64,000 bases of DNA from a bacterium. GTDB taxonomy: Bacteria; Patescibacteriota; SICC01. This document shows positions 20,595-60,292 of the stretch, one piece after another (positions within the stretch are counted from its first letter, which is position 1; each line of letters starts with the position of its first letter). The stretch is taken from NCBI GenBank assembly GCA_030699935.1, contig JAUYKS010000002.1, forward strand, positions 65,018 through 129,017, read 5' to 3'. The notes under the pieces were generated by a model. That model had not been told where the DNA came from and searched no databases. It saw only the letters and a program-made list of their open reading frames with translations. Position numbers and translations under genes: made by a program.

Positions 20595-20595
20595 A

Positions 20596-24905: not shown

Positions 24906-25417
24906 TGCCAGTCCGTCAGGTAACCGAATACGCTGCGCGATTTGTCCTGATTGCCCTGCTGCCAAGTCACCGTCACCGTGACCTTCTTCGTCTCTGGGTC
25001 CTCGAAGCTGCCGCAGGTCGCGCCCTGGCAGATCTTGTCTCCCGCGGACAGCGCGCCGTTACCGTCCGTATCGCTGCGCCGGACGGACGCGATGGTGACC
25101 CGGCGGGTGAACGTCCCCAGCGTCTCGCTGCCGGCTTGCAGGGCCCACGGCGGGTTGGTGCCGGGTTGGGCCGAGAGGCCGTAGGTACCGTCGGTGGCGA
25201 TCGCGTCCCAGTCGTCGTCCCGGATGACGCGGACCGCGTCCATGCCTTCTTTGAGGTGGCCGCCGACCGTGACCAAATCCGCGCCGTAGTCCGAGGTGGA
25301 CCTGGCGACCAGGACGACCTGGATCATCCCCACGACCCCGATTACGAATACGGAGATCGCGACGACCGCTTCCATCAGGGTGAACCCGCGTTCGCGCTGG
25401 CGTTGGCTACTCCTCAT
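24902..25417 (-). CDS. Type IV (pseudo)pilin
   Basis: …RERG^FTLMEAVVAISVFVIG… class III signal. Confidence 0.7.
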   Translation of the reverse strand: MRSSQRQRERGFTLMEAVVAISVFVIGVVGMIQVVLVARSTSDYGADLVTVGGHLKEGMDAVRVIRDDDWDAIATDGTYGLSAQPGTNPPWALQAGSETLGTFTRRVTIASVRRSDTDGNGALSAGDKICQGATCGSFEDPETKKVTVTVTWQQGNQDKSRSVFGYLTDWQ

Positions 25418-25889
25418 GGATTCCTCCGTTCGGGTCGACCTTCAGGGTCCGGGTCCGGTCGGGATCGGTCAGGGTCAGCGTGAGCGTGGCCTGGCTGCTA
25501 CCCTTGGTGCGGCCGGTGATGCGCTGGAAGACGATGCGGTCCGACGACGGGCTGATTTCCACGCCCATCGCGGCGACCCGGAAAGTCTCGGACCTGATTT
25601 TCCCGGCGAAGCCGGATTCGCAGGGATCGGCGGTCGAGTCGCTCGGGATGGAGAAGGAGGTCCAGCCGCCGGACGCGAAGCACATGCCGAATTCCTCGTT
25701 ACCCTTGGCCGCCCGGGCGTCGGATTGGAGAGACCGCAGGTTGGCGGTCAGTTCGTCGAAGTCCTGTCCGAACTTGGCGGGACGGTCGCCGCCGGTCATG
25801 CTGAACGCGATCGCTACCACGACCGCGATGATCGCCATGACCACGACGACCTCGACTACGGTATACCCCCGATTGCGCGTTCCGATCAT
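25407..25889 (-). CDS. Type IV (pseudo)pilin
   Basis: …NRG^YTVVEVVVVMAIIAVV… class III signal. Confidence 0.7.
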   Translation of the reverse strand: MIGTRNRGYTVVEVVVVMAIIAVVVAIAFSMTGGDRPAKFGQDFDELTANLRSLQSDARAAKGNEEFGMCFASGGWTSFSIPSDSTADPCESGFAGKIRSETFRVAAMGVEISPSSDRIVFQRITGRTKGSSQATLTLTLTDPDRTRTLKVDPNGGIHEE

Positions 25890-25970
25890 TTGTTTTCGTT
25901 CATCCGTTTTCGTCCCAAGTATATGCGAGTTTGCGCCCGTGCGAAGCCGGTCACCCTTATACTGATAGCC

Positions 25971-27785
25971 ATGGGTTCAAATCAGGAAAACATCCGCAAT
26001 TTCTGCATCATCGCGCATATCGACCACGGCAAGTCCACGCTGGCCGACCGGCTGCTCGAGCTGACCGGCACGGTCCAGAAGCGCGACATGCAGGATCAGC
26101 TGCTGGACTCGATGGAACTCGAGCGGGAACGCGGCATCACGATCAAGCTCCAGCCGGTGACGATGCAGTGGACCCCGAAGGCCGCCGGATCGGACGCTCC
26201 GCTGACGATGAACCTGATCGACACGCCGGGGCACGTCGACTTCTCTTACGAGGTCTCGCGGACGTTGTCGGCTTGCGAGGGGGCGCTGCTGCTGGTCGAC
26301 GCCACGCAAGGCATCCAAGCCCAGACGCTGGCCCACGCGACGCAGGCGAAGGCGCAGGGGCTCACGCTGATTCCCGTTATCAACAAGATCGACCTGCCGG
26401 CCGCCGAACCGGAGGACACCGCCCTGGCGATCGCCGAGACGTTGGAGATTTCCGCGGACGACGTGATCTTCATCTCGGCCAAGACCGGCGAGGGCGTGGA
26501 CGAGGTCCTGCAGGCGATCGGGGATCGTGTTCCCGCGCCGGAAGGCCAGGCCGGTGCGCCGCTCCGGGCGTTGGTATTCGACTCGCGTTACGATCCGTAC
26601 CAGGGCGTGGTCGCCTCAGTTCGGGTGGTCGACGGCTCGTTGCCGGCCCGCTCGAAGATCAAGCTGATGGCGGTCGGAAAGTCGGCGGAGTCGAACGACG
26701 TCGGCGTGCTGCGGCCGCAGCCGGAGGCGCGACCGCAGCTGGAAACCGGCGAGATCGGCTACCTGGTCACGGGATTCAAGTCGATCGTCGAAGTCCGGGT
26801 CGGCGACACGGTGACGCTGGCGGCGGAGCCGGCCGGCGAGCCGCTGCCCGGCTACCGCGAAGTCTCACCGATGGTGTTCGCCGGAATCTTCCTGGAGTCG
26901 TCCGGCGGCGACTTCGGCAAGCTCCGCGAAGCGCTCGGCAAGCTGGCGCTCAACGACGCCTCGCTCAGCTACGAGCCGGTGCAGTCGCAGGCGCTCGGCC
27001 AAGGCTTCCGGGCCGGCTTCCTCGGGCTGCTCCACCTCGACATCATCCGCGAGCGGCTGACGCGCGAATTCAATCTGAACCTGGTGGTTACCGCGCCGAC
27101 GGTACCGTACGAGATTCGGCTGACCGATGGCAGCGAGCTCACCCTGACCGACCCGGCCGAGCTGCCGGACGTGACCCGGATCGCCGAGATCCGCGAGCCC
27201 TGGGCGGAGTTGGAGATCGTCTGCCGGTCGCAGGACCTCGGCGCCGTCCAGCGGCTGATTGCCGACCGACGCGGCACGTTCGGCGACACGCGGTTCGCCG
27301 CTTCCGAGCGAGTGATCGTCAAGGCGGAAGTCCCGCTCGCCAACCTGGTCGCCGACTTCTACGATCAGCTCAAGGGAGCGACCGCCGGATACGGGTCGCT
27401 CTCATACGAACTCACCGACTTCCGTCCGGCCCCGTTAGTCCGCCTGGACTTCCTGGTCGCGGGCGACGCGGTCTCCGGACTCTCGGTAATCGTCCACAAG
27501 AGCGAAAGCGACCGCCGGTCGCGGGCGGTGTTGGCAAAACTCAAGGAGGTCATCCCGCCGGCGATGTTCCAGATCGCCTTACAAGCGGTCGTCGGCGGAA
27601 AGGTGTTGGCCCGCGAGGACATCAGCGCCCGCAAGAAGGACGTGACCGCCGGGCTGTACGGCGGCGACGTCACCCGGAAGCGCAAGCTTCAGGAGAAGCA
27701 GAAGAAGGGCAAGGCCCGAATGAAGTCCGAAGGCAGCGTGCGCGTGCCGCCGGAGGCGTTCGTGGCGGTGCTCAAGCAGGACTGA
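25971..27785 (+). CDS. lepA: Elongation factor 4 (LepA)
   Basis: NFCIIAHIDHGKSTLADRLL… GTPase G1-G4 motifs, LepA C-terminal domain. Start at Met226 of the listed ORF; the upstream extension is rejected. Confidence 0.95.
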   Translation: MGSNQENIRNFCIIAHIDHGKSTLADRLLELTGTVQKRDMQDQLLDSMELERERGITIKLQPVTMQWTPKAAGSDAPLTMNLIDTPGHVDFSYEVSRTLSACEGALLLVDATQGIQAQTLAHATQAKAQGLTLIPVINKIDLPAAEPEDTALAIAETLEISADDVIFISAKTGEGVDEVLQAIGDRVPAPEGQAGAPLRALVFDSRYDPYQGVVASVRVVDGSLPARSKIKLMAVGKSAESNDVGVLRPQPEARPQLETGEIGYLVTGFKSIVEVRVGDTVTLAAEPAGEPLPGYREVSPMVFAGIFLESSGGDFGKLREALGKLALNDASLSYEPVQSQALGQGFRAGFLGLLHLDIIRERLTREFNLNLVVTAPTVPYEIRLTDGSELTLTDPAELPDVTRIAEIREPWAELEIVCRSQDLGAVQRLIADRRGTFGDTRFAASERVIVKAEVPLANLVADFYDQLKGATAGYGSLSYELTDFRPAPLVRLDFLVAGDAVSGLSVIVHKSESDRRSRAVLAKLKEVIPPAMFQIALQAVVGGKVLAREDISARKKDVTAGLYGGDVTRKRKLQEKQKKGKARMKSEGSVRVPPEAFVAVLKQD

Positions 27786-29316: not shown

Positions 29317-29343
29317 TTAGCACTCTCATTTACAGAGTGCTAA
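29317..29343 (+). promoter_or_regulatory. CIRCE operator (TTAGCACTC-N9-GAGTGCTAA), HrcA binding site
   Basis: Perfect match to the CIRCE consensus, immediately upstream of hrcA. Confidence 0.9.
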
Positions 29344-29355
29344 AAAACTGATAAA

Positions 29356-30072
29356 TTGCATCCTGTCATGCTTTCCGCACGAGAAAACCAGATCTTGAGG
29401 GCGATCGTCCACGAGTATCTGAACTCGGCCCAGCCGGTCGGTTCCAGCGTGCTTCGGGTCCGCTACGGATTCGGGGTGTCCCCGGCCACGATCCGGAACG
29501 TGATGTCGGCGCTGACCGAGGCCGGATTCCTCGAGCAGCCTCACGTCTCGGCCGGGCGGGTGCCGACGGACCGGGCGTTCCGGTTGTTCATGGAAAGCGC
29601 CCCGACCAAGGACCCGTCCATCTCCGAACAACAGAAGTTAACGCGGCGGCTGGAAAAGGCCGGATCGGCGCCCGAAGCGTCGCGCCGGCTGGCCGAGCAG
29701 CTCTCGGAAACCGCAGGCGCGGCGGGCATTCACATGGACGCGGATGGCGTCCAGCTGTATAACCTGGCGAACGTATTCGGCCAGGCGGAATTCCAGGATC
29801 CGCACGTCGCGTCGTATTTGGCGGAGCTGCTGGACCGTGCGAAGGAGTGGTTTCCGAAGCTGGCGGGCCGGACCACGCGGCTGGGTATCCGGATCGGCGC
29901 CGAGCATGAGGACTTCCGGGCCCGCGCGGTGGCGATTCTCGGGCTCAAGCTGAAGCCGACTTCGCAATACGAGTCGCGGGTCGGCGTGATCGGCTCCACG
30001 CGGATGCCGTACCAGCGCCTGACCGCGCTGTTCGACTATGGCAGGAAGGAGCTGAGTCGTGTCTACGGATAA
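29356..30072 (+). CDS. hrcA: Heat-inducible transcription repressor HrcA (short, 238 aa)
   Basis: N-terminal winged helix (…LSARENQILRAIVHEYLNSAQPVGS…) follows the HrcA pattern. Preceded by CIRCE. Confidence 0.85.
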   Translation: MHPVMLSARENQILRAIVHEYLNSAQPVGSSVLRVRYGFGVSPATIRNVMSALTEAGFLEQPHVSAGRVPTDRAFRLFMESAPTKDPSISEQQKLTRRLEKAGSAPEASRRLAEQLSETAGAAGIHMDADGVQLYNLANVFGQAEFQDPHVASYLAELLDRAKEWFPKLAGRTTRLGIRIGAEHEDFRARAVAILGLKLKPTSQYESRVGVIGSTRMPYQRLTALFDYGRKELSRVYG

Positions 30073-37858: not shown

Positions 37859-37931
37859 GCCCCGGTAGCTCAGTTGGCAGAGCAGTGGGCTTTTAACCCA
37901 TGTGTCACAGGTTCGAGACCTGTCCGGGGCA
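37859..37931 (+). tRNA. tRNA-Lys (anticodon UUU)
   Basis: Acceptor stem gccccgg/ccggggc, D-arm tagctcagttggcagagc, anticodon loop cuUUUaa, T-arm ggttcgagacc. No encoded CCA. Coordinates +/-1. Confidence 0.85.
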
Positions 37932-38522: not shown

Positions 38523-38579
38523 GCGTCCAGGATACCAAGGAAGTGCCATATAATTATGGGTACGCAACGGCACCCAGTC

Positions 38580-38626
38580 TTGACAAAGTGCCCAAAATTT
38601 GCTATGTTAAGGCAATTTTCAAAGAT
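38580..38626 (+). promoter_or_regulatory. Conserved promoter block, copy B: TTGACA-N17-TATGTT + aaggcaattttcaaa leader, 18 nt before ATG 38627
   Basis: Same architecture as copies A, C and D. Confidence 0.55.
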
Positions 38627-41600
38627 ATGAACACGGGCATCACACATAAGGTAATCCTCGCGGCGGTAGTCGCGGCAGCGGGCGCGGTCATGGTAACGGC
38701 GCTCAGCCAAACGGCGTCGGACCCTTACGTCGCGAAGTCGCCGCCCGCCCCCCAAGCCGGCAAGGAAATCCGGAGCTTGACCAAGGTGAGCGGCCATTCG
38801 CTTGAGACGGTCAAGCTGAAGGACGGCAAGGAAACCAAGGCGGCCGCCGGGCATCTGGTGGTCCGCTTGGAGAATGACGCCGCCAAGCGGCAATTCGGGG
38901 ACCGGTTGACCGGGACCAGCATTCCGAATATCTATCTGTTGTCCGTCGACGAACCGGTCAGCCAGGCCCGCACCAAGGTCGCGGCGCTGCCGGGAGTGCG
39001 GAGCGCCACGCCGGACTTCGTCGTCGCGGCGACCCGCACGCCCGACGATCCGCACTACCCGTACCAGTGGGGACTGCCGAAGATCAAGGCGCCAGCCGCC
39101 TGGGACCGGACGGTCGGTTCTTCGTCCGTCATCATCGCCAGCATCGACACCGGGGTGAACGCCTCGCACCAGGACCTCTCCGGCAAGATGTGGACGAACC
39201 CGGGCGAGACCTGCGGCGACAACGATGACGACGACGGGAACGGCTACATCGACGACTGTAACGGCATGGACTTCGTGAACGGGACCAAGCCGGGCGGCGT
39301 CTTCAAGAACGACGCCAACGGCCCGGACGACGATCAAGGTCACGGGACGCTGACGTCGTCGGTCTTCGCGGCTGACACTGACAACGGCCTTGGCGTTGCC
39401 GGCGTCGATTGGAACGCGAAGGTATTGGCGATCAAGGTATTGGACTCCGACGGCTACGGGTTATTTTCCGACGTCGCGGAGGGAATCCGGTACGCTGGCA
39501 TAGTCGGCGCGGACGTCGCCAACATGAGCCTCGGCGCGGACGGACTGACCACCGAGACGATGACCGACACGGCGATCAACGAAGCGATCGCGGACGGCGT
39601 CATCCTAGCCGCCGCTTCCGGTAACGATGGTTACACGAACTCCATCAACTATCCGGCGATCAACCCGTACGTGATCTCGGTCGGGGCCACTACCTCGACC
39701 GACGCGCGAGCCGGCTATTCGAACGGCGGTTCGCAGCTCGACCTGGTCGCGCCAGGGTCGGGCATCCGCGGCGCCTACCTCGGCAACACGAGCTACGTCT
39801 CGGCCTCCGGCACCTCGCTGTCCACGCCGCACGTCGCGGGCGTGGCGGGATTGCTCCGAGCGCTGGACCCGGACGTCAGCTACTCCCGAGTCCGGACGAT
39901 CCTGAAGAGCACCGCCGATACCGTCTCCGGCATGAACGGAGCCACCCGCACCAACCTCTACGGCGAGGGCCGGCTCGATGCGAACGGCGCCCAATCCCTG
40001 ATCAAGGCCTACTCCAGCGAATGGGTCCGGCAGTCCGCGACCGCGACCGCGGCATCCGGAACCGACCGCGCGGTCTACGTCGACTACAAGAACGTCGGCC
40101 TGAACCCCTGGTCGAATACCGGATCGAACCCGGTCCGTCTCGGGACCAGCCACACCAAGGGGCATTCATCCCAGTTCTACAACACGTCCTGGCTGAGCAA
40201 GAGCCGTCCGGCCAGCTTCACGGGACGGGTCGAAGGCGACGGCAGCGTCACCGAGACCGACACCATTCAGCCCGGCGAGACGGCGCGGTTCAGCTTCACG
40301 ATGACCTCGCCGCCGCGGACGACCACCACGACGTTGCGCGAGTACTTCCAACCGGTCGTCGAAGGCGTGACCTGGCTCGAAGACCAGTCGAAGTACATCA
40401 CGACGACGGTACCGGGGCGGTACTACCGCGGCCAGTTGGTCGGGAAGACCAATCCGCCGCCGGTGGTCCTGGCAAACCAGCTCAGTCCGGTGACCGCCGA
40501 CGTGAAGAACACCGGCACCGCCACCTGGCGGAACGATACCTCCTACGACATGAGGCTCGGTACGGTCAATCCGGTAAGCCACAACAGCACGTGGTACGAC
40601 AGCGGTACCTGGCTGACGCGAAACCGGCTCGGCACGTTCGTCGGCAAGGTGTCGGGAGGCGTACTCACGCCGACTAATTCCATCGCTCCCGGCGAGACCG
40701 CCCGATGGTCGTTCCAAGTGAAGGCACCGTCCCGCGGCGGCACGTATCATGAATACTTCAGTTCGCTGATCGACTACTTCGGTTGGCAGAAGAACCTTAA
40801 CCTTGGTTGGACCCAGTTCGTGCCGAGCACCGCGTATGATTACAAGTTCGTAAGCAAGGCACCGCACTACCAGTACCTGGCCCGCGACGAGACGAAGACG
40901 ATCTACATCCGGCTCCGGAACATGGGATACGCCACCTGGCGCTCCAGCGGATCGGGTTCCGTCCGGCTCGGAACCGATCGTCCGCAGAACCGCGGCAGCG
41001 GATTCTCGGACGGCGGTACGGCGGCCGGCTGGATTACCAGCAACCGGATCAAGCTGGGCAGCAACCTGACGGATGCCGACAAGAACGTCGGCGGGGAAAC
41101 CAGCGTGGCGCCCGGCGAGATCGGTGAATTCGAGTTCGACATCGTCGGCAAGCCGCGATCGGGAACGTACAAGGAGTACTTCCGGCCTCTCGTCGAAGGC
41201 CGCGGCTGGATGAAGGACATCGGCATCAACTGGTCGATCACGGTGGAGAACCCGATCGACGTCGCGCTGACCAGCCAGTCCAGCGCGACCATGAGCGGCA
41301 CGAACACGGTTACGATCGTGGATGTGAACGGGACGAACCGCGGTACCGTCGCGCCCGCGACGGACTTCATTATGCGCAAGAACGGATCGCGCTATCAGGT
41401 ACTCCTGCCCGGCCCGGACATCGACTCCTGTTGCGTCCTGACGGCCCAGCAGGCGCCGGGCAACCGGTTCCTGGTGACGAACCTGGCTGACAACGGCAGC
41501 CAAAACTACTTCCGGGGCGAGATGTCGATCCGGACCGGCAGCGCCGGTACCCATCTGGTGAATTCCCCGAACCTCGAGCATTACTTGCGCGGCCTGGGCG

Positions 41601-42322
41601 AAGTGCCGGACAGTTGGCCGATCGAATCGATCAAGGCCCAGATCACGGCGGCCCGGACCTTCGCGGCCCGGAAGATTCAAAGTCCCCGGTCGAACACCTT
41701 CGACATCTATGACGATACGCGCGACCAGGTCTACAACGGCTACAACAGCGAACTGGCCAAGCCGAACCACGTCACGGCGGTCAATGCGACTACCGGCAAG
41801 GTGGTCAAACGGGACGGATCGCTGATCCAGGCATTCTACAGTTCGAACGCCGCCGGCCGCACCGCGGACAATGAGGATGTCTGGGGCGGCAGCCCGATCA
41901 ACTACCTGCGCGGCAAAGCGGACTCCTACTCGCTGGTCAGTTACACTTCCCACCTCTGGCCGGATACCACCTCGCGGGCGACAATCAAGGCTAACTACGG
42001 CTTCGGCTGTACGGTGACCGGCGTCGGCGTGGTCTCGAAGTACCCGGGCGACCGCATGCGGACGGTGCGGCTGGCCGGCTCGGGATGTGCCACTCGGGAT
42101 TACACGCTGGCCGCCGACACTCACCGCAGCCGGCTCGGCCTACCGTCCTCGCAGGTGACGAGCATCACCAAGAGCGGCACGAACTTCGTGTTCGGCGGGA
42201 AGGGCTTCGGGCACGGGATCGGCATGAGCCAATACGGCGCCTACAACCGCGCCGCGAACGGCCAGAGCTACGTAACGATCCTCCAGTTCTACTACACCGG
42301 CGTGACGATCGGGAACCTCTGA
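38627..42322 (+). CDS. Giant secreted multidomain protein: signal/TM anchor + subtilisin-like S8 peptidase + 3x ~110-aa repeats + C-terminal SpoIID/LytB domain
   Basis: S8 catalytic triad contexts DTGVN…, HGTLTSS…, GTSLSTPHVAG…. Three repeats ending in GTY(K/H/R)EYF…G(W/V)…. C-terminus …QVYNGY…AFYSSNAAGRTADNEDVWGG… is SpoIID-like. Start at MNTGITHKVILAAVV… (signal peptide); the upstream in-frame extension is rejected. Confidence 0.8.
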   Translation: MNTGITHKVILAAVVAAAGAVMVTALSQTASDPYVAKSPPAPQAGKEIRSLTKVSGHSLETVKLKDGKETKAAAGHLVVRLENDAAKRQFGDRLTGTSIPNIYLLSVDEPVSQARTKVAALPGVRSATPDFVVAATRTPDDPHYPYQWGLPKIKAPAAWDRTVGSSSVIIASIDTGVNASHQDLSGKMWTNPGETCGDNDDDDGNGYIDDCNGMDFVNGTKPGGVFKNDANGPDDDQGHGTLTSSVFAADTDNGLGVAGVDWNAKVLAIKVLDSDGYGLFSDVAEGIRYAGIVGADVANMSLGADGLTTETMTDTAINEAIADGVILAAASGNDGYTNSINYPAINPYVISVGATTSTDARAGYSNGGSQLDLVAPGSGIRGAYLGNTSYVSASGTSLSTPHVAGVAGLLRALDPDVSYSRVRTILKSTADTVSGMNGATRTNLYGEGRLDANGAQSLIKAYSSEWVRQSATATAASGTDRAVYVDYKNVGLNPWSNTGSNPVRLGTSHTKGHSSQFYNTSWLSKSRPASFTGRVEGDGSVTETDTIQPGETARFSFTMTSPPRTTTTTLREYFQPVVEGVTWLEDQSKYITTTVPGRYYRGQLVGKTNPPPVVLANQLSPVTADVKNTGTATWRNDTSYDMRLGTVNPVSHNSTWYDSGTWLTRNRLGTFVGKVSGGVLTPTNSIAPGETARWSFQVKAPSRGGTYHEYFSSLIDYFGWQKNLNLGWTQFVPSTAYDYKFVSKAPHYQYLARDETKTIYIRLRNMGYATWRSSGSGSVRLGTDRPQNRGSGFSDGGTAAGWITSNRIKLGSNLTDADKNVGGETSVAPGEIGEFEFDIVGKPRSGTYKEYFRPLVEGRGWMKDIGINWSITVENPIDVALTSQSSATMSGTNTVTIVDVNGTNRGTVAPATDFIMRKNGSRYQVLLPGPDIDSCCVLTAQQAPGNRFLVTNLADNGSQNYFRGEMSIRTGSAGTHLVNSPNLEHYLRGLGEVPDSWPIESIKAQITAARTFAARKIQSPRSNTFDIYDDTRDQVYNGYNSELAKPNHVTAVNATTGKVVKRDGSLIQAFYSSNAAGRTADNEDVWGGSPINYLRGKADSYSLVSYTSHLWPDTTSRATIKANYGFGCTVTGVGVVSKYPGDRMRTVRLAGSGCATRDYTLAADTHRSRLGLPSSQVTSITKSGTNFVFGGKGFGHGIGMSQYGAYNRAANGQSYVTILQFYYTGVTIGNL

Positions 42323-42387: not shown

Positions 42388-43767
42388 ATGAAGCAACCAG
42401 CCTTAATGTTGGCGCTGGGAGTGATCGTCGGCGTGGCCGCGGCGTCCTGGCTGCCGGTATGGTTGGCGCTCGGGTTGGCGGCCGTTGCGTGCTACCGGTC
42501 GCTTCTGCTGGCAATCGGCCTGGCGATCGGCGCTTACCGGATCATGCTGAGCCCACTCCTGCCCCCGGAAGCGGACTTGGCGGACCTTGCCGGGCGGGAA
42601 CGGACGGTGCGCGGGGTGGTAGACTCGTTCCCGGATTATCGGCAGGAATACCAGCAGTTCGTCGTCAAAGGGACGGCGGAGGGCAAAGAGGGCAGGACGC
42701 TGGTCCAGACCGACCCCTTGCTCGAGTTCTCGCCAGGCGACCGCGTCGAGGTGACCGGCCTGCTGACCGCGCCGCGCAACTTCGACGGTTTCGACTATCG
42801 GAGCTTCCTGGCCAAGGACGGCGTCCACTCGATCATGCGCCGGGCCGACGTCAACATCGCAGGAAGCAAACAAACGCTGGCGCGGACTTTTTACGCGATC
42901 CGGAAGCGCTGGGTGCTGCAGACGGAACGTACGTTCCCCGAGCCGGCCGCCGGGTTCAGCCTGGGTATCCTGATCGGCGAACGCTCGACGTTGTCCGACT
43001 CCCATATCGAGGCGTTCCGGAAGACCGGCACGACCCACATCCTGGCGCTGTCCGGATTCAACGTCAGTATCATCATCACGGCGATCGTCTGGGTGCTCGG
43101 ACGGAAGCCGGCGGCGCTGACCGCGTCCCTGGGACTGATTGCGGCATTCGTCCTTCTGGTCGGTCCGTCCGCGACGGTGGTACGAGCCGCGCTGATGGGC
43201 GGCTTCCTCCTGCTCGGACAACTTTTTGGACGTCCGCAGGCGGCCATGTACGGCGCGGTGATCACGGCCGCCGCGATGCTGTTGATCCAACCCCACGCTT
43301 TGCGCTATGACCTCGGTTTTGACCTCTCCTTCCTCGCCACCCTCGGCATCCTCTGGCTGGAGCCGGACATCCGCTCCCGGATCACGCGCGTCCCCGAGCT
43401 GGCCCGTGGAATCGTATCCGCGACGCTTGCCGCCAGCGGGGCGACGGCGCCGCTGATCGCGCTGACGTTCGGGACGGCCAGCCTGGTGTCGCCGCTGGCG
43501 AACCTGCTGGTGGTCCCGGCGATTCCTCTCCTGATGCTCGGCGGTTTCGTCAGCGTGATGATCTCGTTCGTTTCGTCCGAGTTGGCCGCCTTGCCGGCGG
43601 CGTTGACCGCCGCCGCGACCGTCCGTCTGCTCGGCGGAATCAGTTGGCTGGCCGACCTGCCGGCCGCCTCGGTCACGTTCGCGGAGCTGAAGGGACCCAC
43701 GGCGATCCTGCTGTCGGTGGTCGCCGCCGCCGGGATCTTCCAATTGAAACGGCCACGGTATGCGTAA
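42388..43767 (+). CDS. comEC: ComEC/Rec2 DNA internalisation channel, competence (membrane) domain only
   Basis: …HILALSGFNVSIIITAIVWVLG… competence-domain signature and many TM helices. Confidence 0.8.
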   Translation: MKQPALMLALGVIVGVAAASWLPVWLALGLAAVACYRSLLLAIGLAIGAYRIMLSPLLPPEADLADLAGRERTVRGVVDSFPDYRQEYQQFVVKGTAEGKEGRTLVQTDPLLEFSPGDRVEVTGLLTAPRNFDGFDYRSFLAKDGVHSIMRRADVNIAGSKQTLARTFYAIRKRWVLQTERTFPEPAAGFSLGILIGERSTLSDSHIEAFRKTGTTHILALSGFNVSIIITAIVWVLGRKPAALTASLGLIAAFVLLVGPSATVVRAALMGGFLLLGQLFGRPQAAMYGAVITAAAMLLIQPHALRYDLGFDLSFLATLGILWLEPDIRSRITRVPELARGIVSATLAASGATAPLIALTFGTASLVSPLANLLVVPAIPLLMLGGFVSVMISFVSSELAALPAALTAAATVRLLGGISWLADLPAASVTFAELKGPTAILLSVVAAAGIFQLKRPRYA

Positions 43768-44653
43768 GGCGGCCTACACGCTCGCGTTGGTTCCGCTGCT
43801 CGCCATCGTCTTAGCCGCCGTCTTCCTATCGTGGCCCGGCACCGGCACCGGCTTCAGCTCTGGCACCGGCTTCGGCGCTCCCGAGGCCCGGGTGTATTTT
43901 TTCGACGTCGGGCAAGGGGACGCGGCGCTGATCGACGTCGGACACGGGACGCAGATCCTGATCGACGGCGGTCCCGACCGGGCGGTCCTGCGCGGGCTCG
44001 GCGAAATCATGCCGAGGTTCGACCGCCGGATCGAGTTGGTCATCCTGAGCCATCCTCACCTCGACCACTACGGCGGCCTGATCGATACCGTGTCCCGGTA
44101 CGACGTCGGAGCGGTGATGCTCAACCAATCCGGATCAGGCAAGCCGTACGAACGGCTGGTCGAGGACGTACGGGCCGGCAGCCGGATCATTCCGGCCGCG
44201 GGTCAGCGTATCCCGCTGCCCGGAGGCGTGATCGAAATCTTGGAACCCGGCGTGCCGGGGACGGACTCCGCGAACCGGAAGCGGTTCTCCAATCCCAACG
44301 ACGCGTCGGTGGTCGCGCGCCTCGAGCTGCACGGGCACACTTTCCTGTTTCCCGGCGACGCCGAAGAAGCCGAAGAACGCCGTTTGCTCAGAAGCGGCGG
44401 CTTGGACGTCGAGGTACTGAAGGTCCCGCATCACGGCAGCAGCACCTCATCGACGGAAGAATTCCTCCAGGCCGTCACCCCGGATTGGTGCATCGTCTCG
44501 TCCGGCAAGGATAACCCGTACGGACATCCGAATCCGGGGACCTTGTCCAGGTTGGAAACCGCGGGTTGCCGGACCGTCCGGACGGACCGGCACGGGACGA
44601 TCACGTTCCGGCTGACCGGATCGCAGATGCGGGTAGTGCCACAGCGCCGTTAG
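43760..44653 (+). CDS. ComEC C-terminal metallo-beta-lactamase domain as a separate ORF with its own N-terminal TM helix
   Basis: …VYFFDVGQGDAALID…HPHLDHYGG…KVPHHGSS… MBL motifs. 8-nt overlap (ATGCGTAA) with the upstream ORF. Confidence 0.75.
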   Translation: MRKAAYTLALVPLLAIVLAAVFLSWPGTGTGFSSGTGFGAPEARVYFFDVGQGDAALIDVGHGTQILIDGGPDRAVLRGLGEIMPRFDRRIELVILSHPHLDHYGGLIDTVSRYDVGAVMLNQSGSGKPYERLVEDVRAGSRIIPAAGQRIPLPGGVIEILEPGVPGTDSANRKRFSNPNDASVVARLELHGHTFLFPGDAEEAEERRLLRSGGLDVEVLKVPHHGSSTSSTEEFLQAVTPDWCIVSSGKDNPYGHPNPGTLSRLETAGCRTVRTDRHGTITFRLTGSQMRVVPQRR

Positions 44654-49625: not shown

Positions 49626-50620
49626 GTACGTTCGTATTCATCTACCATCCGGCGCAAGGAAAAATGCTCGATGGCGTGCTGGCGGGCCGTCCGCCGATCC
49701 AGTTCACCGATCCGGCGGACGTATTTGGTAAGTCCCGCCGGTGTCTTCGCTAAGAAGCCGGTCTTGCCATGGACTACGAGCTCCGGCATCGCCCCGCGCG
49801 GTGTAGTCAACACGGGCGTGCCGCAGGACATGGCTTCGACCGCGACCAATCCGAACGGTTCCTCCCAGCGGAGCGGTGAAAGCAGTCCGACGGCGCTTCT
49901 CAGTAGTCGGACCTTTTCGGTCAGGCTGACTTCTCCCACGTACCTGATTTGCTTGGAGAGGTATGGCCGTATCTTCGTTTCGAAGTAACCCCGGTTTTCC
50001 TTCGCAATCATTCCCGCGATGACCAGAGGCACCTTGGCTTTGCGCGCGATTTGTACGGCATCGCCCGCACCCTTCTTTTCGGAAATCCAACCGAGCCAAA
50101 GGAAATAGCCCCCGCCGCCTTTTCCGAAGGCGTGGCGATCGGTATCGACCCCGTTATAGATGGTCTTGGTAAACTTCGCGCCTCGATACAATGTCCGCTG
50201 CTGCTTCGAAATGGCGATCAGGTGCGTGTACTTGCTGGCGTCGCGGAAAAAGACCTCTCGCTCCTTGTTCCATCCGTTATGGATAGTCGACGCCATCGGT
50301 GCTTTCAGGAGAGGTGCGAAGGATAGGGCGACGTTATCGAAGTGGTTCGACCAGAGTTCTATTCCGCGATCCCGCGAGAAAATCTTGAGGAGATGGTCGG
50401 CATGCACGATCCCGCGCAAGGACTCGGAAATGTCCCTGATTTCCCGTGGCCACGTGGTGACGAGATTCCCTTTGAATTTGGAACCACTGGCTGCGAATAG
50501 CGTGACCTTATGTCCGCGCTCCAAGAGACCGTTCGCGAGTTGGTCGATAATCCTTTCGACGCCCGCATGACCGGTCGGGGGAATTTTCCTGTATAGCGGC
50601 GCGATGACTCCGACGTGCAT
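49598..50620 (-). CDS. GT4-family glycosyltransferase (paralog of 48504-49625, convergent, 3' ends overlap 28 nt)
   Basis: …EEPFGLVAVEAMSCGTPVLTTPRGAMPELVVHGKTGFL…. Confidence 0.75.
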   Translation of the reverse strand: MHVGVIAPLYRKIPPTGHAGVERIIDQLANGLLERGHKVTLFAASGSKFKGNLVTTWPREIRDISESLRGIVHADHLLKIFSRDRGIELWSNHFDNVALSFAPLLKAPMASTIHNGWNKEREVFFRDASKYTHLIAISKQQRTLYRGAKFTKTIYNGVDTDRHAFGKGGGGYFLWLGWISEKKGAGDAVQIARKAKVPLVIAGMIAKENRGYFETKIRPYLSKQIRYVGEVSLTEKVRLLRSAVGLLSPLRWEEPFGLVAVEAMSCGTPVLTTPRGAMPELVVHGKTGFLAKTPAGLTKYVRRIGELDRRTARQHAIEHFSLRRMVDEYERTYLGLLANA

Positions 50621-50787
50621 ACGACAATCTTAGCTAAAAAAAGGAACGCCGACCTGCTGAGAGCATGCTGCCGGCAATTGTACCCTCAGCACAAGTAACT
50701 GGTATGAGGGTATAAATGCCTGAGCGTGACGATTTATCTGTTGGATACCCGACGGTTGTTACTCTCCGCTGGTGGTACGATTTGCGC

Positions 50788-51381
50788 ATGACAGTCGTTA
50801 TCGCTAGCAAATGCCAAGAAGGTGTGCTGTTGGCTTCGGATACACGAGGAAGGCAGTATATCCCAGACGTTCGTGAGAAGGAATCGGTAGATGGTGTTAG
50901 TAAGATTTTCCCCATGAGCGACAAGGTGGCTGTGCTGTCTTTTGGAGCAGGCCTGCAAGACTTCGACAAAAGGCTAGAAGGCCACGCTAAATCACAAAAA
51001 GCGAACATTGCTGCTGGCTTGATTAAGGATCAACCGGACTTAGATTTGTTCAAGAACACACTTCCTCACTTCTTCAATTACACCTACCTTGACCAGCCAG
51101 ACGACATGGAAGATTCTGCTGGGTTCTTGCTGGTTAGTAAGAATGAAACATATAGTCTGCACTCTAACTCCGATTTTGCGCCAGAAAAAATAGATGCTGA
51201 CTACAAAGTGGCTGGTGTTCCAGATATTCTGTTTGAGGGGGATAAGAAACTGACGGCCAGAGAAACCGCTGATCGAGCCATTAAAGCCATAGAGTATTGC
51301 GCCAAGAAGTATAAAGACGACGTAAACAACGATGTTCAGATGTGGCTTATCACTGACTCCGGTATGTCCCGCTTTACATAG
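50788..51381 (+). CDS. Orphan HslV/proteasome-beta-like Ntn-hydrolase
   Basis: After Met: TVVIASKCQEGVLLASDTRG… (Thr1, Asp17, Lys ~33-38) and …VAVLSFGAGLQDF…, parallel to HslV TTIV…GDGQ…AGFAGG. Low-GC (~45%) islet; no HslU nearby. Confidence 0.5.
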   Translation: MTVVIASKCQEGVLLASDTRGRQYIPDVREKESVDGVSKIFPMSDKVAVLSFGAGLQDFDKRLEGHAKSQKANIAAGLIKDQPDLDLFKNTLPHFFNYTYLDQPDDMEDSAGFLLVSKNETYSLHSNSDFAPEKIDADYKVAGVPDILFEGDKKLTARETADRAIKAIEYCAKKYKDDVNNDVQMWLITDSGMSRFT

Positions 51382-51411
51382 TCAAACCACCGCCATACGA
51401 TAACTCCGTTA

Positions 51412-51912
51412 ATGCCTAAGAAGCAGCCAGCCACCGAAAAAGAGAAGACTATCGTCGGGGCGGTAATTCTCGCGGTATTCTCTGTATTCGCACTAACGGC
51501 CTGTACCGGTGGGAGCGACGACAGCGATACAAACGACACGACAAACAATCAGGCTAACGAATCTGTTAAAGAAACCCCGAAAAACGAAGAGTCTTTAGTC
51601 GATAAGGTCGAGGTAGCACTGGATAAATTGGGCGAAGGATATAAAAGTGAGCTGGCTTCAACGAACGGCGGCTATCGGGGCGATATAATTAGCGTTGAAC
51701 CAGCCGTAGGTGACGATACCGTTAAAGTTAATGTATCGACTCGCTTTAAAGACTCGGGTGATGAACCTGATGGCGGTAGAAACATAGCTCGCAGGATATT
51801 CGGCAGTATTTGTCTTGATGTTCCAGAGCTTGAAAGTCTGTATGTGGTAAGCAGTTCTGGATTGGAAAGTAAGTCAGTATATCGCAGTCAAATACCTGGC
51901 TGTAAGCAGTAG
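51412..51912 (+). CDS. Hypothetical lipoprotein (low-GC islet)
   Basis: Signal peptide + lipobox LTAC. Confidence 0.5.
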   Translation: MPKKQPATEKEKTIVGAVILAVFSVFALTACTGGSDDSDTNDTTNNQANESVKETPKNEESLVDKVEVALDKLGEGYKSELASTNGGYRGDIISVEPAVGDDTVKVNVSTRFKDSGDEPDGGRNIARRIFGSICLDVPELESLYVVSSSGLESKSVYRSQIPGCKQ

Positions 51913-51974
51913 ATCAGTAGTCGGCAGAAGCGAGTAGAATATGAGTGTGGCTGAGAAAAACCCAGTATCCCTCA

Positions 51975-52990
51975 ACGCTTTCAACCGATTGCTTAACCGC
52001 GCTTCGCAACCGGCAGCGAAACCTGCGAAACCAAAGCGTCGAACATCCCGCCCTGCAAAGTCCGGTGGGAATACCGCCAGCCGTACTCGTTAGCGTAAAG
52101 CTGTAGGTACTTCGGGCTGACGTGCCGGTACACGCCGGTTATGCCTCGTTTGAGGTGTGACCAGATATTCTCGATGTTCTGGGTGTGAACCGATCCGCTG
52201 ACGTACTGCTTCCGCTGGTGCTTGATACCGTCGTGGGTAAAGCCGACCTTGTGGAGTTTCGAGTAAACCCCATGTTCGTCATGGTAAATGGTCGCGTCCG
52301 GCGCGACGTTGAGGACAATAGGCGGGGTCAGGGCTTCGGTTCCGGTGTGGGGGACATGGACGAGCTTGGCCTTTCCGCCTCGTGAAACCATGCCGAACAC
52401 AACGGCCTTATCCTGATGTCCGCCTCGGTTACTGTGCTTCTTATCAGGGTGCCGGTTCTGGTCTGCCCCGCCGACAAACGTTTCATCCACCTCGACTTCG
52501 CCGGACAGCATTTCGCCGTCCTCGGCAGACATGAGCGTTCGTATCTGCTTGGCGATCCGCCACGCTGTCTTATAGGTCACGCCAAGCTCCCGCTCCAACT
52601 GCTTGGCCGAGATACCAGCGCGGGTCTGAACCATGAGGTACATGGCGTAAAACCACAGCCAGAGTGACGTGGTGGACTTCTCAAAGACCGTACCGGCCAA
52701 CGGGTAGACTTGGTACCCGCAGTTGCAGGCATAGCTGGTACGTCCCTTAACACGGGACAGCTCGTTTTCCCGTCCGCACTTCGGGCAGGTGAAATCACGG
52801 AAGCGGATTTGCCGTATTTCCTCTAGGCACGCAGCGTCATCAGGGAACCGCTTACGGAAGTCTGCGATGGTGAACCTGTCGTCCATAGGCACATATTAGC
52901 AGCTAACCTACTTGTAGTCAAGGTATAAGTGCCATGCTGCCAGCCTTGACTATTAGCACCTTTTGTGTTATGGTTAAGCAATTTTCAAAC
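51975..52990 (-). mobile_element. IS1595-family (ISXO2-like) insertion sequence, ~1 kb, bounds approximate
   Basis: Single transposase ORF. 11-bp terminal inverted repeats ATTGCTTAACC (51988-51998) and GGTTAAGCAAT (52972-52982). Sits in a low-GC islet. Confidence 0.7.
51993..52892 (-). CDS. IS1595-family transposase (DDE, N-terminal Zn-finger)
   Basis: …FTCPKCGRENELSRV…YACNCGYQV… zinc ribbon, HTH (…LGVTYKTAWRIAKQIR…), ISXO2-like DDE domain. Confidence 0.85.
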   Translation of the reverse strand: MPMDDRFTIADFRKRFPDDAACLEEIRQIRFRDFTCPKCGRENELSRVKGRTSYACNCGYQVYPLAGTVFEKSTTSLWLWFYAMYLMVQTRAGISAKQLERELGVTYKTAWRIAKQIRTLMSAEDGEMLSGEVEVDETFVGGADQNRHPDKKHSNRGGHQDKAVVFGMVSRGGKAKLVHVPHTGTEALTPPIVLNVAPDATIYHDEHGVYSKLHKVGFTHDGIKHQRKQYVSGSVHTQNIENIWSHLKRGITGVYRHVSPKYLQLYANEYGWRYSHRTLQGGMFDALVSQVSLPVAKRG

Positions 52991-55765: not shown

Positions 55766-55823
55766 TTGACATTTACGCCAAATAATGTTATGGTTGTCTA
55801 ATTTTGCAACACAAATACCACGC
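55766..55823 (+). promoter_or_regulatory. Conserved promoter block, copy D: TTGACA-N17-TATGGT + tgtctaattttgcaac leader upstream of pilN
   Basis: Same architecture as copies A, B and C. Confidence 0.5.
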
Positions 55824-56429
55824 ATGTACTCGCACACGTTAAACCTACTTCCGCGCAAAGAGCAGCGGCGCCGCCGGACCGACCTGCTCAACTACTACAC
55901 GCTCGTCGCGGGCATCGTGACCGTGACCGGCGCCCTGGTGATGGCCGGACTCCTGCTGGTGTTCGACCAAATCTACAAGGTCAATCTTGACGATCTCCAG
56001 GCCGACAAGCAGCTAGTGGAAAGCCAGGCCGTGGCGTACCTGGACATCGAGAAGGAAGCGAAAGGCCTGGAAGTCCAACTGGACAACCTCCGCCAGGCCG
56101 AAGGGCAGACGACGCGGTGGGCGGCCTTGGTCTCGGCGCTCCGCACCATGACGCCGGAGGGCGTGTCGATCAAGACGGTCGCGTTCATCGGCAAGGATGC
56201 CGCCGGCCAAGGGGCCGTCGACAACCAGAGCCAAAACCAAAATAACCAGAGCCAGATCACCGGCGTCACGACGAGCCGCCGTGCACTCGGCCAGTTCCAG
56301 CTGGCGTTGTCCGAATCGGCGTTCCTCAAGGAATCCCAGATCCTGAACACCACCCGGGAGGGCAAGGTCATCCAATACACCATGTCGATCGAAATCGACC
56401 AATCCGAGCTGGAGGCGTCGCAATCATGA
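55824..56429 (+). CDS. pilN: Type IV pilus assembly protein PilN
   Basis: …LNLLPRKEQRRRRTD… PilN signature, then a TM helix and coiled coil. The MLWLSNF… extension is rejected. Confidence 0.7.
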   Translation: MYSHTLNLLPRKEQRRRRTDLLNYYTLVAGIVTVTGALVMAGLLLVFDQIYKVNLDDLQADKQLVESQAVAYLDIEKEAKGLEVQLDNLRQAEGQTTRWAALVSALRTMTPEGVSIKTVAFIGKDAAGQGAVDNQSQNQNNQSQITGVTTSRRALGQFQLALSESAFLKESQILNTTREGKVIQYTMSIEIDQSELEASQS

Positions 56430-57058
56430 ACGTCGACCTCACCAATCTCCGGATCAAGCCGGAGCAGCGGTTCTACTACCTGATCGCCGGGAACGTGGTC
56501 ATCCTGGCCCTGATCGGAATCTTCGTGCTGCGTCCGGTGATGGGACTGCTCAACAAGCACGCCGACCAGATGACGGCGATGAAGGCGGACATCGCCACCG
56601 CCCAGCAGAAGATGGATACCTTGCGCAAGCTGAAGGCATCGCTGCCGGCGACCAAGGCGGTGTACGCGCCGGTGATCAGGAACGCGCCGAAACACAAGGA
56701 CATCGCCGGATACCAGACCGAGCTCGAGGACCTGGCGGCGTTGACCCGGGTCGACCTCATCACGGTCGATACCAGCGGCGCAGCCAAGGGTCAGAGCCCG
56801 GCCGCGGCCCAGACCGACCTGACGGTCGGCGGTTTCCCGGCCTTCCCGGTCAGCATCGACGTCTCCGGCAGTTACGCGAACACTTTGGACTTCGTGAACC
56901 GGCTCGAGACCATGGACCGGTTCACGCGGGTCGTCGCCCTGAGTTTTGTCCAGGCCGACACCTCCGGCGAGGTCAAGCTGACGATCACCGCGCAGTCGTT
57001 GTACTTCGGCGGCGCGGACACGACGAGTAAGACTGGTAAGGCGGGGAAGGCATCATGA
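56426..57058 (+). CDS. pilO: Type IV pilus assembly protein PilO
   Basis: N-terminal TM helix, coiled coil, PilO-like C-terminal domain; ATGA coupling to pilN. Confidence 0.65.
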   Translation: MNVDLTNLRIKPEQRFYYLIAGNVVILALIGIFVLRPVMGLLNKHADQMTAMKADIATAQQKMDTLRKLKASLPATKAVYAPVIRNAPKHKDIAGYQTELEDLAALTRVDLITVDTSGAAKGQSPAAAQTDLTVGGFPAFPVSIDVSGSYANTLDFVNRLETMDRFTRVVALSFVQADTSGEVKLTITAQSLYFGGADTTSKTGKAGKAS

Positions 57059-58221: not shown

Positions 58222-58236
58222 TCCGACCGCCGCGAC

Positions 58237-58918: not shown

Positions 58919-60292
58919 GTGGTACGCATGATCGGAGCATTCTTCCGCTTCATACTCTGGATCGTGATTTGGATGGTGGGCTTGGCCGTGCTGTTCACGC
59001 TGTTGGTCAGCGACGCCCATGCCCAGCCAACTACATACCTGCCCTGGGATTACGGCAGGACCTACCGTGTCACGCAAGGTAACGGCGGCGGGTGGTCTCA
59101 TTACGACCGCTACAACCGGTACGGGTGGGACTTCGCCATTCCGGCCGGGACGCCCGTCCGATCGTCCGCGCCGGGAACGGTGCGGCGGGCCGGGTGGGAC
59201 GGAGGCTGGGGCATCGCCGTAGTGGTGTGCTATGCCGACGGCACCTGTTCGCGGTACGCACACCTGTCCGCGGAGTACGTTTCCGCGGGACAGCGGGTCG
59301 GGCAAGCGGCGCCGCTGGGGAGGGTCGGTTCGACCGGCAACTCCACGGGGGCGCACCTGCACTACCAGCTGGACAACGGTTGGGGCATCAGCCTGCCCTC
59401 GCGGTTCACCGAGGCCGGCGTGCCGTATGCCGGCCAAGCGGTGACCAGCCGCAACCGCCCGGCTCCGCCGGTCCCGCAGTACCCGACGTTCTCATCGATC
59501 GACGTACATTCGTCGAACGTCCTGAGCGTCCGGGCGGGCGGGGAAGTCACCGCGGTGGTGACGGCTCGCTACGAGGGTCCCTGGCGGATTCCGTGCGGGG
59601 ACTCCAATCTGGCGGTCCGGGGCGACTCACCGGCCCGCTTCGCGGACTACCGCGCGGGGTGGTGGCCGGGCTCGACCTGGCGCCGCCCGAGCCGGGTGGC
59701 GGCGGTTAATTGCACCGGCTATCTGGATCCCGGCGACAAGGCGCGTTGGGACCTCCAGTTCTACGTGCCGCCGGACACGGTGGACGGTACCTACCTGACC
59801 GGCATCTACGCGCCGGTTTACGAAGGCAAGGCCTGGTCGCCGTACAAGATCCCGATCTCGCTCCAGGTATCCGGAGCGTATCGGGCGGAAAGGACCGGCC
59901 AGACCTATGTGCGCGAGCCGCTCGTCGCGGGCGGTACCGCGGAAGTATCGGTCACGTTCCAGAACACGGGATGGGCCACCTGGTATGCGCACGGACGATA
60001 TGCGGTCCATCTCCGGACGATCCGGCCCGTGGACCGCCACAGCGCGTTCCTCGACCTCGAGGATCCGCGGACGCTGGGTGACGGCATCGCCGTCGCCTTG
60101 CCAAAAGATGTTCCGCCGGGCGATACGGTAACCGTAACGTTGCCGATCAAAGTCGCCGGCACGGTCAAGCCCGGAACGTACCGCGAGTACTTCCGTCTGC
60201 TGGCCGAGCACAAAGCGTGGCTGGGAACTGAGGGGCTCTATTGGCCGTTTACGGTCAAATCCCCGACAGTCACATACCAACCGGCCGAGTAG
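58919..60292 (+). CDS. M23/LytM-family metallopeptidase with N-terminal TM anchor and 2x C-terminal ~110-aa repeats shared with the S8/SpoIID protein
   Basis: …YGWDFAIPAGTPV…HYQLD… with the HxH motif (GAHLHYQL). The repeats end …GTYREYFRLLAEHKAWL…. Confidence 0.8.
   Translation: MVRMIGAFFRFILWIVIWMVGLAVLFTLLVSDAHAQPTTYLPWDYGRTYRVTQGNGGGWSHYDRYNRYGWDFAIPAGTPVRSSAPGTVRRAGWDGGWGIAVVVCYADGTCSRYAHLSAEYVSAGQRVGQAAPLGRVGSTGNSTGAHLHYQLDNGWGISLPSRFTEAGVPYAGQAVTSRNRPAPPVPQYPTFSSIDVHSSNVLSVRAGGEVTAVVTARYEGPWRIPCGDSNLAVRGDSPARFADYRAGWWPGSTWRRPSRVAAVNCTGYLDPGDKARWDLQFYVPPDTVDGTYLTGIYAPVYEGKAWSPYKIPISLQVSGAYRAERTGQTYVREPLVAGGTAEVSVTFQNTGWATWYAHGRYAVHLRTIRPVDRHSAFLDLEDPRTLGDGIAVALPKDVPPGDTVTVTLPIKVAGTVKPGTYREYFRLLAEHKAWLGTEGLYWPFTVKSPTVTYQPAE

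Follow-up and report, generated by a model that had tools for sequence, protein, structure and literature searches.

Why two genes of one small genome should join a subtilisin-like protease, a SpoIID-type domain and an M23 peptidase to the same kind of repeat is the question raised by the locus analyzed here. We studied a stretch of 64,000 nucleotides (contig JAUYKS010000002.1, positions 65,018 to 129,017; hereafter the window, whose own numbering is used throughout) which harbours the open reading frame (ORF) 38627..42322, encoding a protein of 1231 amino acids (aa) with the architecture S8-FW-SpoIID (protein A), and the ORF 58919..60292, encoding an M23-FW protein (protein B). Judged from a structural model and from profile matches, the repeat is a bacterial FW (NBR1-like) immunoglobulin-fold domain enlarged by an insertion, and we lean towards the view that both proteins are exported, modular cell-envelope hydrolases which the FW repeats would hold in the wall by multivalent binding. 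By the similarity of its proteins, the source organism is a Candidatus Saccharimonadia (TM7, Patescibacteria) bacterium. The closest ortholog of protein A, 77% identical, was found on an 810-kb contig of a metagenome-assembled genome of Candidatus Saccharimonadia, and the about 19 orthologs sharing its architecture (45-77% identity) are labelled Patescibacteria. An identical NCBI entry of protein A is annotated as SpoIID/LytB domain-containing protein. The rest of the window encodes housekeeping functions (DnaK, DnaJ, RuvABC, PNPase, RNase J and LepA).

The two catalytic domains of protein A look intact at the sequence level. Peptidase_S8 (PF00082) was recognized at aa 166-447 with 151.3 bits against a cut-off of 21.8 (E 4.6e-44), and residues D174, H239, S397 and N333 align with D32, H64, S221 and N155 of subtilisin BL (1ST3); the triad in the order Asp-His-Ser and the oxyanion-hole Asn are both present. 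At the other end of the protein, aa 977-1229 correspond to SpoIID_LytB (E 8e-54; PF08486, 56.6 bits, cut-off 23), with 183.4 bits for TIGR02669 against a cut-off of 83.3, whereas the equivalog model for sporulation SpoIID itself gave 116.6, below its cut-off of 234.75. E992 aligns with the Glu of the 'SEM/GEM' motif in the SpoIID structures 4RWR and 5I1T, the catalytic residue of the lytic transglycosylase, and the conserved blocks 'AARTFA' (consensus 'AARTY'), 'FYSS..G.T' and 'GHGIGMSQ.GA' are present as well. Across 19 orthologs, the four S8 residues and E992 are invariant. The subtilisin-like domain with its Asp, His and Ser contexts and the C-terminal SpoIID/LytB domain had been proposed in an initial annotation, made from the sequence without database searches, and both were borne out by these profiles and alignments, as was the catalytic Glu that it had left to be checked. 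The segment preceding the SpoIID match (aa 877-972) belongs to no Pfam family of its own and shows a mean ortholog identity of 42%. No SpoIIP-like, Amidase_3 or SpoIIM partner genes were seen among the scanned genes of the window.

Each of the two proteins has one N-terminal hydrophobic segment, no further membrane segment and no sortase motif. Because of this single segment, which fits secretion as the initial annotation had left to be verified, both are predicted to be exported, either secreted or N-terminally anchored. Between the predicted signal sequence and the S8 domain of protein A, aa 29-140 are read as a putative propeptide since they lie where an inhibitory propeptide is expected; the fervidolysin N-terminal prodomain (PF22148) matched the N-terminal region under its cut-off (E 0.012).

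In protein B, the M23 domain was located at aa 67-152 (E 5.6e-25; PF01551, 87.8 bits, cut-off 28.7), followed by two repeats. Its best relatives in PDB are 3SLU/6MUK (4e-17), LytM and lysostaphin. Alignment and lineage comparison show the HxH motif (H146-L-H148) and the catalytic His (H114, in 'YAHLS') to be conserved. As for the start, GTG 58919 was rejected, given that the ATG at 58928 has an AGGAGG 8 nucleotides (nt) upstream and that the NCBI model comprises 454 aa; ATG 58928 is likely the true start.

Within protein A, any two of the three repeats (A1, A2 and A3) share 29-38% identity, and BLASTP comparisons between them gave E values of 1e-14 to 1e-19. A repeat profile built without protein B sequences recovered the second repeat of protein B (B2) at E 1.5e-22 and the first one (B1) marginally (E 0.011). 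When a profile of B1 orthologs was compared with the repeat profile, hhalign gave a probability of 97.6% (E 4e-12, 113 columns). On account of the B-free profile and of the hhalign comparison, all five repeats are taken as homologous, in agreement with the earlier proposal that proteins A and B share one repeat. A six-frame scan of the whole window yielded no sixth copy. The repeat unit, which had been put at about 110 aa, comprises 131-142 aa, about 137. Similarly, the end motif GTY(K/R/H)EYF(R/Q/S)(P/L)L(V/A)EG...W, thought to be common to all five, is matched exactly by A3 and B2, the other three copies (A1, A2 and B1) following it approximately.

Several lines of evidence relate this repeat to the FW domain. 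PF16158 (N_BRCA1_IG) scored 34.9 bits on the whole of protein A against a gathering score of 28; single repeats gave only 14-23 bits, and B1 gave no score. Among proteins found with the repeat profile, PF16158 matched 57 of 60 and 47 of 49 at E<1e-4, and it is also precomputed for the orthologs. An AlphaFold2 model was calculated from an alignment in which the repeats of the window were combined with those of homologs, 63 in all; their identity to A3 ranges from 20 to 77% and is mostly about 30%. The model is all-beta with a predicted local distance difference test score (pLDDT) of 96.7 and has the FW beta-sandwich fold. In a Foldseek comparison with PDB, the FW domains of human NBR1 (4OLE, E 3e-6) and human ILRUN (6VHI) came on top, and the complex of Nbr1 FW with Ams1 (7VQO) was also listed. 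The Ig-like fold that the initial annotation had named for inspection is thus what the model displays. FW domains have four conserved tryptophans. In the alignment of 63 repeats, W37 is invariant, W68 and W127 reach 90% conservation or more, and either W or Y occupies the first position; the number of Trp per repeat is 4-6. A sequence search of PDB with the repeat profile returned chance-level matches only (nitrite reductase, E >=0.24); the FW relationship was revealed only by fold comparison. NCBIfam holds no model for the repeat. Given the fold matches and PF16158, the repeat is neither a new fold nor a new family, and the notion of a new module has to be abandoned since the family is already known. 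In proteins A and B and in the isolated repeats, LysM, SH3b, SPOR, PG_binding, choline-binding and SLH gave no Pfam match, even with E values up to 10. The repeats may therefore work like these established wall-binding modules without being members of them.

The distribution of the repeat was determined by running its profile exhaustively against 1.84 billion representative proteins, clustered at 50% identity. At E<=1e-3, 7852 clusters matched, of which 3807 had E<=1e-10, and FW copies numbered 2 to 16 per protein; a word-indexed protein search with the five-repeat alignment had only 2 matches. Partner domains were counted in the 150 best-scoring FW-repeat proteins of the 7852 clusters. An unannotated N-terminal domain of about 250 aa, which we call 'LQKE', is present in 61 of the 150, Amidase_2 in 16, SpoIID in 14 (two of them also with S8), M23 in 6, S8 alone in 6 and CHAP in 2. 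A few carry other domains (glucose/sorbosone dehydrogenase, GH6, GH113 and others), and 16 are FW-only proteins or fragments. With the 'LQKE' domain counted, wall hydrolases make up 62-66% of these 150. The FW repeats are accordingly found joined to enzymes for the glycosidic (lytic transglycosylase or lysozyme-like), amidase and endopeptidase bonds of peptidoglycan. This occurrence on several classes of wall hydrolase gives the wall-targeting idea its best support, by association, and on that ground the FW repeat is probably a wall-targeting module.

The 'LQKE' domain, seen in P0147, P0251, P0268 and 58 others, is marked by an invariant Lys-Glu in 'LQKE(Q/E)SL' and by a 'GYGCPD' motif; sequence searches of Pfam, NCBIfam and PDB found nothing for it. 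Its AlphaFold model (pLDDT 86.9) matched only peptidoglycan glycosidase structures: GH73 AtlE, a Clostridium perfringens autolysin, pneumococcal LytB and SagB, and then g-type lysozymes, FlgJ and lytic transglycosylases. Based on this model, the domain may be lysozyme-like and might represent an undescribed family of wall glycosidases.

According to the mechanism that we propose, both proteins would leave the cell by Sec export, after which the subtilase propeptide would be removed. The tandem FW repeats would keep both enzymes at the peptidoglycan layer, within it or on its surface, through multivalent binding to a wall component. There, SpoIID would cut glycan strands as a lytic transglycosylase, M23 would cut peptide cross-links, and S8 would cut wall-associated proteins. 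The target would be the producer's own wall, opened for growth, for division or to make room for the type IV pilus and the ComEC DNA-uptake machinery.

A number of observations weigh against this reading. The FW domains characterized so far bind proteins and not glycans (PMC9233695, PMC3357945), and the functional data on them are all eukaryotic (PMC3357945, PMC9233695, PMC9582228). The earlier proposal of a wall-targeting module consequently stands in part: the hydrolase partners among the best 150 proteins and the conservation of the repeats favour it, whereas its carbohydrate-binding side is disfavoured by this protein-binding role. The list of 150 is itself biased to multi-copy proteins near the query lineage; without the 'LQKE' domain, the wall hydrolases recognized by Pfam account for only 21-25% of it, and it also includes other partners (glucose/sorbosone dehydrogenase, GH6, GH113 and S8 alone). 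The Foldseek matches of 'LQKE' are weak (E 0.04-0.9, TM-score 0.35-0.48). In two relatives (L012 6001-9342 and L013 6001-9378), the gene upstream of comEC encodes S8 and four FW repeats and no SpoIID, so glycan cleavage would not be essential to the core role of S8-FW. The canonical HxxxD zinc motif is not found in the M23 domain of protein B, which has R66-Y-G-W-D70, with Arg where 2HSI has His. Finally, a tblastn search of 50,697 phage genomes with the three repeats of protein A and the FW-bearing, lysozyme-like P0147 detected no FW repeat. Wall-binding domains are common in phage endolysins, and this empty search gives no support to the presence of FW repeats in endolysins of cultured phages.

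As regards the M23 domain, an 'SH' (H61) located 9 residues before the Asp is strictly conserved throughout the lineage (aa 61-70, window 59099-59128), equivalent to an insertion of six residues; H61 may substitute for the missing His of HxxxD in the zinc site. A degenerate, non-catalytic LytM of the EnvC, NlpD or SpoIIQ kind was considered and not adopted, in view of the conserved D70, H114 and H146xH148 and of the conserved upstream His. With its non-canonical zinc motif, the domain could be either an active variant or a degenerate LytM.

Three other explanations compete with the one that we prefer. If the FW repeats were passive Ig-like spacers, a rigid stalk without ligand that sets S8 and SpoIID, or the membrane and catalytic ends, apart across a thick wall, the wide range in copy number from 2 to 16 and the weak cross-matches of the repeats to CARDB, NPCBM_assoc and DUF4832 would be readily accommodated. 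We regard this as unlikely, since conservation of the repeats comes close to that of the catalytic domains (mean ortholog identity 44-57% and 61-62%, respectively) and the polar positions N31, S57, R73 and E116 show at least 90% conservation over the 63 repeats at an identity of about 30%, which is unusual for a mere linker. Moreover, the repeats are orthologous position by position: in every ortholog, it is the last one that is closest to A3. The protein-binding nature of the characterized FW domains, which as parts of autophagy receptors recognize Ams1, MAP1B and TAX1BP1 in eukaryotes (PMC9233695, PMC3357945, PMC9582228), leads to another possibility, namely that the repeats are protein-docking modules as in NBR1, with each other, the type IV pilus and ComEC, or an S-layer as partners, and that proteins A and B are wall openers dedicated to such a machine. 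Protein A keeps its place directly before comEC in genomes that differ in neighbours or in SpoIID, and in three genomes the genes ahead of protein B are pilN-pilO and two unknown ones. Nevertheless, the region is collinear among relatives, which makes adjacency weak evidence, comEC has a promoter-like site of its own, and the many unrelated hydrolase partners in many genomes fit a common wall ligand better than a large set of specific protein partners. Dedicated docking therefore appears quite unlikely to us.

The remaining alternative concerns the target. Cultivated Saccharimonadia are obligate epibionts on other bacteria (PMC11623550), and proteins A and B could be offensive, digesting the surface proteins, glycans and cross-links of a host whose wall the FW repeats would recognize, for attachment or for the acquisition of nutrients or DNA. 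The fusion of a protease to a domain cleaving wall glycans, unnecessary in ordinary autolysis, and the conserved position beside the DNA-uptake channel ComEC would suit such a role. On the other hand, no sign of host specificity was observed, the two genes are single-copy syntenic core genes amid housekeeping genes without the diversification expected of host-range determinants, and nothing resembling an immunity gene was noticed. An organism with a genome of about 0.8 Mb must in addition possess some autolysins in order to divide, and none besides these was seen in the window. An offensive role is thus doubtful, though we would not call it far-fetched. The own wall is favoured as somewhat more likely than the host wall because the genes belong to the single-copy syntenic core of a small genome that must divide. 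A broader proposal would make the tandem extracellular FW repeat a widespread wall-binding module for all hydrolase classes and the Saccharimonadia pair a kit for breaching the host wall, coupled to DNA uptake through ComEC and the type IV pilus that would feed nucleotide-auxotrophic cells; we consider it rather improbable.

Proteins A and B as candidate wall hydrolases can be set beside several known systems. Their repeats resemble the FW/NBR1-like domains (PF16158; 4OLE, 6VHI and 7VQO) in the Pfam match, above the gathering score for protein A as a whole, and probably in the conserved W37, W68 and W127. They differ from the model of about 108 aa in their greater length, the extra part being an inserted segment 'RPxDRxSxF...W..NR'. 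The bacterial FW domains known already are single, C-terminal and cytoplasmic, in XRE-FW regulators (PMC3357945); in contrast to these and to the eukaryotic ones, the repeats described here are predicted to be extracellular, occur in tandem (2-16 copies) and are fused to wall hydrolases. With SpoIID of Bacillus and Clostridioides, a component of the engulfment DMP machine, and with amidase enhancers of the LytB type, protein A shares the TIGR02669 match, the Glu and the conserved blocks. Unlike sporulation SpoIID, its domain occurs in an organism that is no spore former, shares a polypeptide with a subtilase and FW repeats, and is absent at the locus in two relatives. AtlA/AtlE, LytA and lysostaphin stand for enzymes with modules of the LysM, SH3b, choline-binding, SLH and GW types that follow the same logic: behind a signal peptide come one or two catalytic domains, together with tandem non-catalytic repeats that recur in several hydrolases of one organism; lysostaphin and LytM are moreover M23 enzymes like protein B. 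Compared with those Gram-positive autolysins and endolysins, the FW repeat is unrelated in sequence, and a subtilase is part of the same polypeptide. As to the subtilases, WprA, Vpr, fervidolysin and the mycosins resemble protein A in the S8 domain, the propeptide-like N-terminus and the C-terminal beta-sandwich domains, whereas none of them has SpoIID or FW repeats. The nearest relatives of the S8 domain are subtilisin, thermitase and deseasin; the mycosin model was sub-threshold, and protein A scored far under the equivalog cut-offs of mycosin and dentilisin.

The literature search retrieved no paper tying bacterial FW domains to wall or peptidoglycan hydrolases and nothing on SpoIID-type enzymes in Saccharibacteria. 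In the literature searched, the S8-FW3-SpoIID fusion, the variant M23 motif and the wide association of extracellular FW repeats with peptidoglycan hydrolases are undescribed. How ultrasmall Patescibacteria remodel their own wall and open that of a host is little understood, and candidates are needed for the few genetically tractable Saccharibacteria; the locus offers two conserved candidate wall enzymes, both predicted to be secreted. It also raises the idea that FW, known only as a protein-binding module of eukaryotic autophagy receptors, is widely used as an accessory of bacterial peptidoglycan hydrolases. Should FW bind a wall polymer, it would constitute a new class of wall-targeting domain, which would help to annotate thousands of metagenomic proteins and be of use in lysin engineering, and which would inform on the evolutionary origin of the cargo-recognition domain of NBR1. 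If the repeats were only spacers, proteins A and B would be ordinary, though unusually fused, autolysins.

The features of the two genes and of their immediate surroundings are listed in Table 1.

Table 1. Positions in the window of the features assigned to proteins A and B and to neighbouring genes.
Feature	Position	Strand	Basis or remark
Extended -10 pattern, three copies	29329-29357, 38580-38608, 55766-55794		Pattern scan of the window
Predicted sigma70-like promoter with extended -10 (TTGACA-17-TGcTATGTT)	38580..38608	+	10/12 consensus positions, TG before -10; consensus match only
Protein A, aa 1-28, predicted signal peptide or signal anchor	38627..38710	+	Only hydrophobic 19-residue window (Kyte-Doolittle >1.6)
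Protein A, aa 29-140, putative subtilase propeptide	38711..39046	+	Weak PF22148 match and position
Protein A, aa 141-460, S8 subtilase (D174, H239, N333, S397)	39047..40006	+	PF00082; 1ST3 alignment
FW (NBR1-like) repeat A1, aa 462-597	40010..40417	+	E 1.9e-50 against the family profile
FW repeat A2, aa 598-734	40418..40828	+	PF16158, 23.4 bits on A2 alone
FW repeat A3, aa 735-876	40829..41254	+	Lineage-conserved insertion 'NLTD..KNVGGET'
Protein A, aa 877-972, beta-rich segment at the N-terminal side of the SpoIID/LytB unit	41255..41542	+	Contiguous with the SpoIID match
Protein A, aa 973-1231 and stop, SpoIID/LytB with Glu992	41543..42322	+	TIGR02669, 183 bits (cut-off 83)
comEC (DUF4131 and Competence)	42388-43767	+	65 bp after protein A; neighbouring gene, listed as context only
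Separate metallo-beta-lactamase (MBL)-fold gene	43760-44653	+	Directly after comEC; context only
Protein B, predicted signal peptide (cleavage-like site between AHA and QP)	58928..59023	+	Sole hydrophobic N-terminal segment
Protein B, M23 (LytM) domain	59024..59458	+	PF01551; D70, H114 and H146xH148 by PDB alignments and lineage conservation
FW repeat B1, aa 188-318, divergent	59480..59872	+	B-free profile and hhalign
FW repeat B2, aa 319-457 and stop	59873..60292	+	B-free profile; BLASTP to A3, 3e-15

The ORF of protein A was confirmed on the plus strand, its length being counted from the ATG at 38627. This start is favoured over a GTG at 38543, which would give a longer form and was rejected, because of the position of the predicted promoter and because the database orthologs begin at the ATG. 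The initial annotation had protein A driven by a 'promoter block B'. The predicted sigma70-like site, a good one lying 19 nt upstream of the ATG, agrees in part with that statement. The extended -10 pattern TTGACA-N14-TGnTAnnnT occurs three times in the window, where chance would give 0.02, and these three copies may be the 'promoter blocks' of the initial annotation.

Downstream of protein A, ComEC is split: the membrane part (DUF4131 and Competence) and the nuclease-like MBL part are encoded by two genes with an overlap of 8 nt. This split recurs in relatives, in two of which the MBL gene is missing at the locus. The order protein A, comEC, MBL gene is kept in four independent relatives, and the protein A locus is directly upstream of comEC in every relative examined, those lacking SpoIID included. 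From the two relatives without SpoIID at the same locus, S8-FW appears to be the constant unit and SpoIID an add-on. Other relatives have a fourth FW repeat and, within S8, an insertion of about 110 aa which looks fibronectin-III-like by its sequence pattern. Compared across these genomes, the architecture of protein A is evolving by domain gain and loss, and the S8-FW-SpoIID fusion is confined, in the sequences retrieved, to one Saccharimonadia clade.

Protein B is encoded downstream of pilN, pilO and the two unknown genes in the three genomes mentioned above, usually before an MacB/FtsX-like permease and an ATPase, and in relatives both FW proteins are found on the same contigs. Because the whole region is collinear among the small genomes of the relatives, adjacency to comEC and to pilus genes is suggestive and not specific, and for the same reason adjacency to comEC was rejected as proof of an operon. 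In the window, positions 55785-58803 comprise pilN, pilO, a 388-aa ORF (57055-58221) and a 188-aa ORF on the minus strand (58237-58803). Neither of these two ORFs had a Pfam or NCBIfam match. The 388-aa ORF is detectable by tblastn beside the M23-FW gene in two relatives, which have a minus-strand ORF of similar size in place of the 188-aa one. Both ORFs may be uncharacterized components of the pilus or the envelope.

Elsewhere in the window, a patch with a GC content of 0.50 (window about 0.63) was observed at 50000-52892, adjoining an IS1595-family transposase gene on the minus strand (51993-52892). It looks like a recent insertion since the flanking glycosyltransferase gene and galT are adjacent in one relative. 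LepA (25296-27785) and RNase J (20521-22581) have about 230 and about 150 residues, respectively, before their first recognized domain, which could be real extensions or result from ORF starts called too far upstream. Four large ORFs without Pfam match have a gene-like GC content at third codon positions: 3362-4549 (+, 395 aa), 8245-9279 (-, 344 aa), 16159-17748 (+, 529 aa) and 22609-24423 (-, 604 aa). The sole Rfam match in the window is one transfer RNA (tRNA) gene at 37859-37931, about 700 bp upstream of protein A. A divergently transcribed gene of 203 aa lies between the two, and the tRNA gene is located just past its 3' end.

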